In this document: piece after piece, positions 57,536-57,581 of the stretch
Layout: each line of letters opens with the position of its first letter
How positions within the stretch are numbered: position 1 is the first letter of the stretch
DNA from: Escherichia coli
GTDB taxonomy: Bacteria > Pseudomonadota > Gammaproteobacteria > Enterobacterales > Enterobacteriaceae
NCBI RefSeq assembly: GCF_002854065.1
Contig: NZ_CP024147.1
Length of the DNA stretch: 64,000 nucleotides
Strand: one strand, 5' to 3'
The notes under the pieces: generated by a model
What the model was told of the DNA's origin: nothing
Database searches by the model: none
The model's input: the letters and a program-made list of their open reading frames with translations, nothing else
Translations under genes and position numbers: made by a program

Positions 57536-57581
57536 AAAGACCGTATTCGGAAATATGCCCGGATCTCTCCGGGCATTATGG

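Follow-up and report, generated by a model that had tools for sequence, protein, structure and literature searches.

The cueO and gcd genes converge in the window, that is, the whole stretch of 64,000 nucleotides of Escherichia coli DNA analysed here (contig NZ_CP024147.1), and are separated by only 46 bp. The original prediction had placed the two stop codons at that distance, across 57536-57581, and its coordinates are exact. The features of the locus are the following.

55985-57535, + strand: cueO coding sequence, multicopper oxidase CueO, stop codon TAA at 57533-57535
57526-57545, no strand: minor 6-bp hairpin TACGGT/ACCGTA across the cueO stop codon, altered in other Escherichia
57536-57581, no strand: convergent intergenic spacer of 46 bp, a short BIME-free allele
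57549-57554, - strand: putative terminator tail in the gcd direction, AUUUCC on the - strand
57555-57576, RNA of both strands: putative shared terminator hairpin, 9-bp perfect stem and 4-nt loop
57577-57581, no strand: candidate empty BIME-1 site TATGG, of which TGG (57579-57581) is replaced by the 158-bp BIME-1 in K-12-type alleles
57577-57587, + strand: U-poor tail in the cueO direction (UAUGGUUAUUU), running into the gcd stop codon
57582-59972, - strand: gcd coding sequence, quinoprotein glucose dehydrogenase, stop codon as complement TTA at 57582-57584

The cueO product matches the NCBIfam CueO equivalog (980 bits) and the gcd product the NCBIfam membrane PQQ dehydrogenase (1195 bits), and the RefSeq annotation of identical DNA gives both genes the same identities. 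The true starts are at 55985 for cueO (MQRRDFLK...) and at 59972 for gcd (MAINNTGS...). A scan of 57000-58100 against Rfam at E <= 1 returned no family, and a promoter scan found no sigma-70-like site within or near the spacer. The minor hairpin across the cueO stop codon is probably incidental, since it is altered in other Escherichia.

The sole strong structure of the spacer is the hairpin formed by the 5' arm ATGCCCGGA (57555-57563), the loop TCTC (57564-57567) and the 3' arm TCCGGGCAT (57568-57576), with six G-C pairs. A single shared hairpin, gcccgg...cgggc, had been predicted; it is present and it is the only strong one, but the prediction gave just the inner part of a stem that has 9 bp and not 5-6 bp. 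Folded alone, the hairpin reaches -15.5 kcal/mol in the RNA of the + strand (z = -4.8) and -16.4 kcal/mol in that of the - strand (z = -5.6), and none of 200 shuffles folds as well. It occurs once in the window, where 0 occurrences are expected by chance, and still only once when up to 3 mismatches are allowed. It begins 19 nt after the cueO stop codon and only 5 nt after that of gcd, the TATGG of 57577-57581 being the entire gap between the latter and the hairpin foot. Both tails are U-poor, with 4 U of 8 in the cueO direction (UAUGGUUA) and 3 U of 8 in the gcd direction (AUUUCCGA), in agreement with the weak U-tracts foreseen on either side.

The hairpin has the stem expected of an intrinsic terminator, G+C-rich, of at least 5 bp and with a short loop (here 9 bp, six G-C pairs and a loop of 4), but on neither strand is it followed by about 6 or more U within the 8-9 nt 3' of the stem. 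It resembles canonical intrinsic terminators such as lambda tR2 (Li et al. 2016, PMC4824070) in being a G+C-rich stem-loop directly downstream of a stop codon, and differs from them in lacking a U-tract of 6-8 nt on both strands. A terminator scan made no call on the - strand at the hairpin. Its arrangement is that of the bidirectional terminators: it lies between convergent genes, and one palindrome yields a stable RNA hairpin on both strands. Two further convergent pairs of the same neighbourhood, listed in K-12 as rows 4 and 6 of the bidirectional terminator table considered below, likewise carry one hairpin each, in spacers shorter still than that of cueO/gcd.

53653-53689: yacL/speD spacer (row 4), 37 bp, hairpin CTGGCGGAGC...GCTCCGCCAG
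60715-60754: hpt/can spacer (row 6, REP11), 40 bp, REP-type hairpin TTGCCGGATG...CATCCGGCA

The hpt/can hairpin, unlike that of cueO/gcd, is itself a REP. It is very improbable that the cueO/gcd hairpin is likewise a REP or palindromic unit, in degenerate or miniature form, and not a terminator specific to the locus. The spacer is indeed a hotspot for REP-type repeats throughout the Enterobacteriaceae, the stem has the CCGGAT core in common with REPs, and the hairpin apex of strain MS 119-7 carries an IS insertion. REPs, however, are high-copy imperfect palindromes with a GTAG/CTAC foot, whereas this hairpin is single-copy in the window and a 91-bp probe containing it finds a median of one place per genome; neither the GTAG/CTAC tetranucleotide nor the internal bulge of the y, z1 and z2 REPs is present. 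Moreover, the table of Harris et al. (2026, bioRxiv 10.64898/2026.03.23.713779) gives cueO/gcd no REP, yet assigns REP11 to the neighbouring hpt/can.

The comparison with K-12 concerns the sequence beside the hairpin. The alignment with MG1655 that had been proposed as a check showed a cueO-gcd spacer of 201 bp (138634-138834), 155 bp longer than that of the window, where the prediction had put the difference at about 150 bp; the identical spacer that was to count against the prediction was not what was found. Between cueO and GGGCATTA, hairpin included, the two sequences do not differ; beyond this point 158 bp replace TGG in K-12 and the gcd stop codon follows. The hairpin is intact in both. 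In MG1655 these 158 bp (138677-138834) lie between the hairpin and the gcd stop codon and comprise, in this order, GCCTGATGCGCTACGCTTATCAGGCCTAC (a z1-type REP), a linker of 35 nt and an inverted y-type REP, GTAGGCTGGATAAGGCGTTCACGCCGCATCCGGCA, together with flanking motifs; the linker carries the IHF consensus AATCAATGGATTG on its - strand. In the description by Ton-Hoang et al. (2012, PMC3333891), a BIME-1 occurs once per locus and combines a z1 REP with a y REP and a long L linker that holds an IHF site. The K-12 insert is a complete element of this BIME-1/RIP type, with inverse z1 and y REPs, an L linker with the IHF consensus and one copy; the window has none of these at 57536-57581 and presents the empty site. 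The suspicion that an element, possibly a REP, is absent from the window was thus sound, and the element comprises two inverted REPs and the linker between them.

The K-12 element recurs at a median of at least 39 places per genome among complete E. coli genomes and, among the matches listed, the copies at other loci cover 94-99% of the element at 87-90% identity. In the window, REP/BIME copies occur elsewhere, with three partial matches to the K-12 BIME-1 probe (78-88% identity) at 30333-30601. Presence/absence variation of BIME-1/RIP (REP-IHF-REP) elements between E. coli strains is described by Ton-Hoang et al. (2012, PMC3333891) and, reportedly, by Bachellier et al. (1997).

The K-12 and window loci have in common the hairpin (AUGCCCGGA-UCUC-UCCGGGCAU), its position 19 nt from the cueO stop codon and the 5' flank UCGGAAAU. 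They differ in what follows: with BIME-1 inserted, the cueO tail UAUGGUUA with its 4 U becomes UAAACUGA with 2 U, and the distance from the gcd stop codon to the hairpin goes from 5 nt to 160 nt. In the predicted fold of the K-12 gcd 3' UTR a large BIME structure forms and the terminator hairpin stays intact.

The distribution of the two forms was followed with three probes in 5,426 complete E. coli genomes. The short allele is present in 2,374 of them (44%), as scored with the 91-bp probe, for which coverage of at least 80% is possible only at the short junction; the hairpin-to-BIME junction is present in 2,942 (54%). Other forms account for about 2% and include alleles of 77 bp and 264 bp and an IS-disrupted form. 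The 46-bp allele was found in IAI39 and E2348/69, in an Australian human isolate and in the lineage of the window, and the 201-bp allele in IAI1, K-12 and O157:H7; we take the allele-carrying strains to represent phylogroups F, B2, B1, A and E. The 264-bp allele of UPEC132 (L004, 627-890) is a BIME with an extra y REP. The 77-bp allele of CFT073 and GIMC1410 (L086, 12964-13040, in CFT073; L005, 401-477) retains nothing of the BIME but its right flank, joined at GGCATGAA, and its sequence looks like a deletion of a UPEC132-type allele at GGCATGAA microhomology. In strain MS 119-7 (L094, NZ_CP146653.1 4206300-4208480) an IS3-family element with ends TGAACCGCCCCGGG..., which we take to be IS629-like, lies in the hairpin apex with a 3-bp GAT duplication, and IS621 (IS110 family) lies inside the adjacent z1 REP; as a result of these insertions the hairpin is no longer common to the two genes in MS 119-7.

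With the exception of one 44-bp variant, every short allele has exactly GGGCATTATGG, and the two junctions are the same in every long allele; therefore, the short and the long allele each arose once. The flanking SNP haplotypes track the genetic background and not the cueO-gcd allele. The nearest complete genome to the window is that of strain 100416 (Gambia), at 99.9% over 24 kb, and the next nearest genomes (99.2-99.1%) all have the long allele. E2348/69 (46 bp) has its flanks in common with CFT073 (77 bp) and UPEC132 (264 bp). The flanks of the window differ from those of Tig207 (201 bp) by a single base, which lies in the last codon of gcd. These shared flanks rule out that the indel follows the flanking haplotype or the phylogroup, and since the flanks are independent of the allele, the alleles have been moved by short-tract recombination.

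Beyond E. coli, the locus was compared in 80 species representatives of the Enterobacteriaceae, a set from which E. fergusonii is absent. The gcd gene is convergent on cueO in 65 of the 80, and the spacers range from 41 to 1547 bp (median 90 bp), with four of 50 bp or less. Nearly all of them are filled by REP-like terminators or by canonical ones of the A-tract/hairpin/T-tract type, and in most related genera examined the gap between the gcd stop codon and the hairpin is at most 8 nt. A short spacer with a hairpin is normal for convergent cueO and gcd in this family. The hairpin itself is conserved in Salmonella and Citrobacter: across 6 taxa the stem is 94% paired, and its apical pair is AU, CG or UA, a covariation. 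In Salmonella arizonae the same hairpin, ATGCCCGGC-ATGC-GCCGGGCAT, is followed by TAATGG and then by the TTATTT of gcd.

All the other Escherichia representatives examined (E. albertii, MOD1-EC7003, E1V33 and E. whittamii) have a BIME beside gcd, which means that the insertion is old or has crossed species. Several of these loci have further peculiarities. Escherichia sp. MOD1-EC7003 (L010, 3668-4525) carries at the same site eight tandem 107-bp z1-L-y units, which match at 96%; such an array is unusual for BIME-1, which is described with one copy per locus. In E. whittamii (L011, 3607-5153) and Escherichia sp. E1V33 (L006, 3607-4455) a different, cueO-proximal hairpin lies between the genes, together with an ORF of 172 aa that has a signal-peptide-like N-terminus (MITFRNLILTFLLSFMVTSANA), gave no Pfam hit and is interrupted by a stop in E1V33; in E. 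whittamii a broken TnpB, with OrfB_IS605 and Cas12f1-like TNB domains, adjoins the BIME. In E. albertii NBRC 107761 (L009, 3604-3960) the gcd frame lacks its last ~40 codons and runs into a truncated BIME, homology stopping at residue 60 of a probe made of the last 100 amino acids; the arrangement suggests that a deletion removed the gcd end together with the right half of the BIME.

Which of the two alleles came first is indicated by the sequence abutting the gcd stop codon. The short junction reads GGGCAT-TATGG-TTATTT and that of Salmonella arizonae GGGCAT-TAATGG-TTATTT; the sequences directly before TTATTT are GGGCATTAATGG in the latter and GGGCAATATGA in C. amalonaticus, whose spacer ends in ...ACCGGGCAATATGA followed by TTATTT. 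By this comparison the TATGG and TTATTT of the window are the orthologous arrangement to those of Salmonella arizonae and C. amalonaticus. Because its junction matches that of Salmonella arizonae, the short allele is probably the ancestral empty site and not a deletion. A plain deletion of the K-12 insert was rejected as its origin, being unable to recreate the TGG junction. The original prediction, which saw in the spacer a minimal bidirectional terminator left by the possible absence of an element, was correct in that the K-12 hairpin is listed as a bidirectional terminator; the hairpin appears, however, to be no remnant but a conserved ancestral terminator, beside which K-12 has an insertion.

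A secondary loss is rather unlikely. On this view BIME-1 was already fixed in the ancestor of Escherichia, and recombination spread a deletion that took place a single time within E. coli. Such a loss would agree with the presence of BIME-1 beside gcd, with the same right junction GCAA[G/A]TC next to TTA, in every non-coli Escherichia representative retrieved, with the occurrence of both alleles on the same flanking haplotypes, and with the fact that BIME deletions do happen at this locus, as exemplified by the 77-bp allele. Nevertheless, removing the insert from any long allele leaves GGGCATTA followed by TTACTT, and not GGGCATTATGG followed by TTATTT. The TGG, as well as the AAA lysine codon of the window-type short alleles, is exactly as in Salmonella arizonae and close to C. 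amalonaticus, and a chance match of those 4 nt is expected about once in 256; recurrent deletion is excluded by the one junction common to all short alleles. On the other hand, an ancestral short form would demand that the polymorphism is very old or that species have exchanged alleles.

As for the function of the hairpin, the evidence comes from K-12, in which it is row 5 of 306 bidirectional terminators (Harris et al. 2026, bioRxiv 10.64898/2026.03.23.713779). The row names gcd:cueO, places the overlap at 138648-138678 with the sequence GGAAAUAUGCCCGGAUCUCUCCGGGCAUUAAA, and lists a stem of 9 bp, a loop of 4 nt and -16 kcal/mol; the terminator was detected in log and stationary phase, with ends 4-5 nt beyond the stem on both strands. 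From the class description and the column headings, we infer that the list (reference 47 of Harris et al.) comes from Ju et al. 2019. SEnd-seq served to define the class of overlapping bidirectional terminators. The authors of the class (Ju et al. 2019, cited in bioRxiv 10.1101/2022.10.23.513370) consider the sites unlike intrinsic terminators and not in need of Rho; in the model presented there, the hairpin pauses the polymerases, and head-on and trailing collisions release them.

Transferred to the window with an offset of 81098, the K-12 positions 138678 and 138648 lead us to expect the cueO 3' end near 57580 (+) and the gcd 3' end near 57550 (-). The RNA ends of the window strain would thus be those of K-12, by analogy; the cueO tail departs from that of K-12 after 2 nt, which counts against the transfer.

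Taken together, we assign a probability of about 0.7 to the reading that the spacer is an ancestral-type, BIME-free form in which cueO and gcd share the conserved 9-bp hairpin as an overlapping bidirectional terminator. A polymerase coming from cueO would transcribe the hairpin 19 nt after the stop codon and end a few nucleotides further on, whereas one coming from gcd would meet the same palindrome 5 nt after its stop codon. Because neither tail is a good U-tract, termination would probably proceed via pausing and destabilization induced by the hairpin, aided by collisions of the converging polymerases, with Rho as a backstop for leakage from gcd into antisense cueO. In K-12 and about half of E. 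coli, BIME-1 would lengthen the gcd 3' UTR from ~30 nt to ~190 nt and leave the hairpin untouched.

The backstop has a counterpart in K-12, where Adams et al. report a bicyclomycin-sensitive region of Rho termination at 138442 (-), antisense to cueO and some 200 nt past the hairpin on that strand (Rho score 3.44, p = 5e-6). This position corresponds to ~57344 (-) in the window, antisense to the 3' part of cueO. On account of this region some gcd read-through into antisense cueO is probable. The curated 3' ends of the K-12 Term-seq of Adams et al., as far as given there, include none at the hairpin; this and the Rho region mean that the K-12 terminator should be regarded as real but leaky rather than absolute. 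Two terminator-like hits on the - strand within cueO (57378-57358) were considered as a backstop near the K-12 Rho region and rejected, their folding being no better than that of shuffles (z = +0.9).

The same data could be read differently: the hairpin would be mainly an element of 3'-end protection or processing, the polymerases of one direction or of both reading through it to be stopped downstream by Rho, and exonucleases trimming the transcripts back to the hairpin foot. This is unlikely, although the poor U-tracts of both tails and the Rho region within antisense cueO speak for it, and SEnd-seq ends at a stable hairpin could be trimmed ends and not true points of termination. The position of the gcd stop codon, 5 nt from the stem, speaks for it as well. 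It falls within the range in which the ribosome repressed tR2: with a reporter system, Li et al. (2016, PMC4824070) saw almost complete repression in vivo when only a few bp separated the terminator from the gene before it. By analogy, a terminating ribosome should occlude the 5' arm of the hairpin. Two roles, termination and the blocking of degradation, are reported for REPs and hairpins like them. Against it stand the published view that sites of this class do not look like intrinsic terminators and are independent of Rho, and the detection of the K-12 hairpin in both growth phases with its ends 4-5 nt from the stem on each strand. That E. coli, Salmonella and Citrobacter all keep the hairpin, with a compensatory change, would fit either role. 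Termination shared by both genes is retained as the preferred function.

The finding is an ordinary one and already known in kind: the bidirectional terminator is catalogued, and the window has the allele without BIME at an intergenic site that commonly varies. Alone it is of little importance, as gain and loss of BIMEs and REPs between strains in 3' regions have already been described. It is doubtful, although conceivable, that the presence or absence of BIME-1 is an old polymorphism, possibly across species, with a possible effect through the distance from the gcd stop codon to the hairpin (5 versus 160 nt). Such a view is built on the single origin of each allele, on the match of the short one to Salmonella, and on the long one being common to E. 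albertii, E. whittamii and related clades. If it holds, ribosome masking of the terminator, read-through in the gcd direction, antisense transcription of cueO and the stability of the gcd mRNA could change; convergent pairs with REPs are described as tending toward higher expression. The locus offers a clean natural pair of alleles, both of them common, in which BIME-1 and the stop-to-hairpin distance can be set against termination, antisense read-through and mRNA stability.
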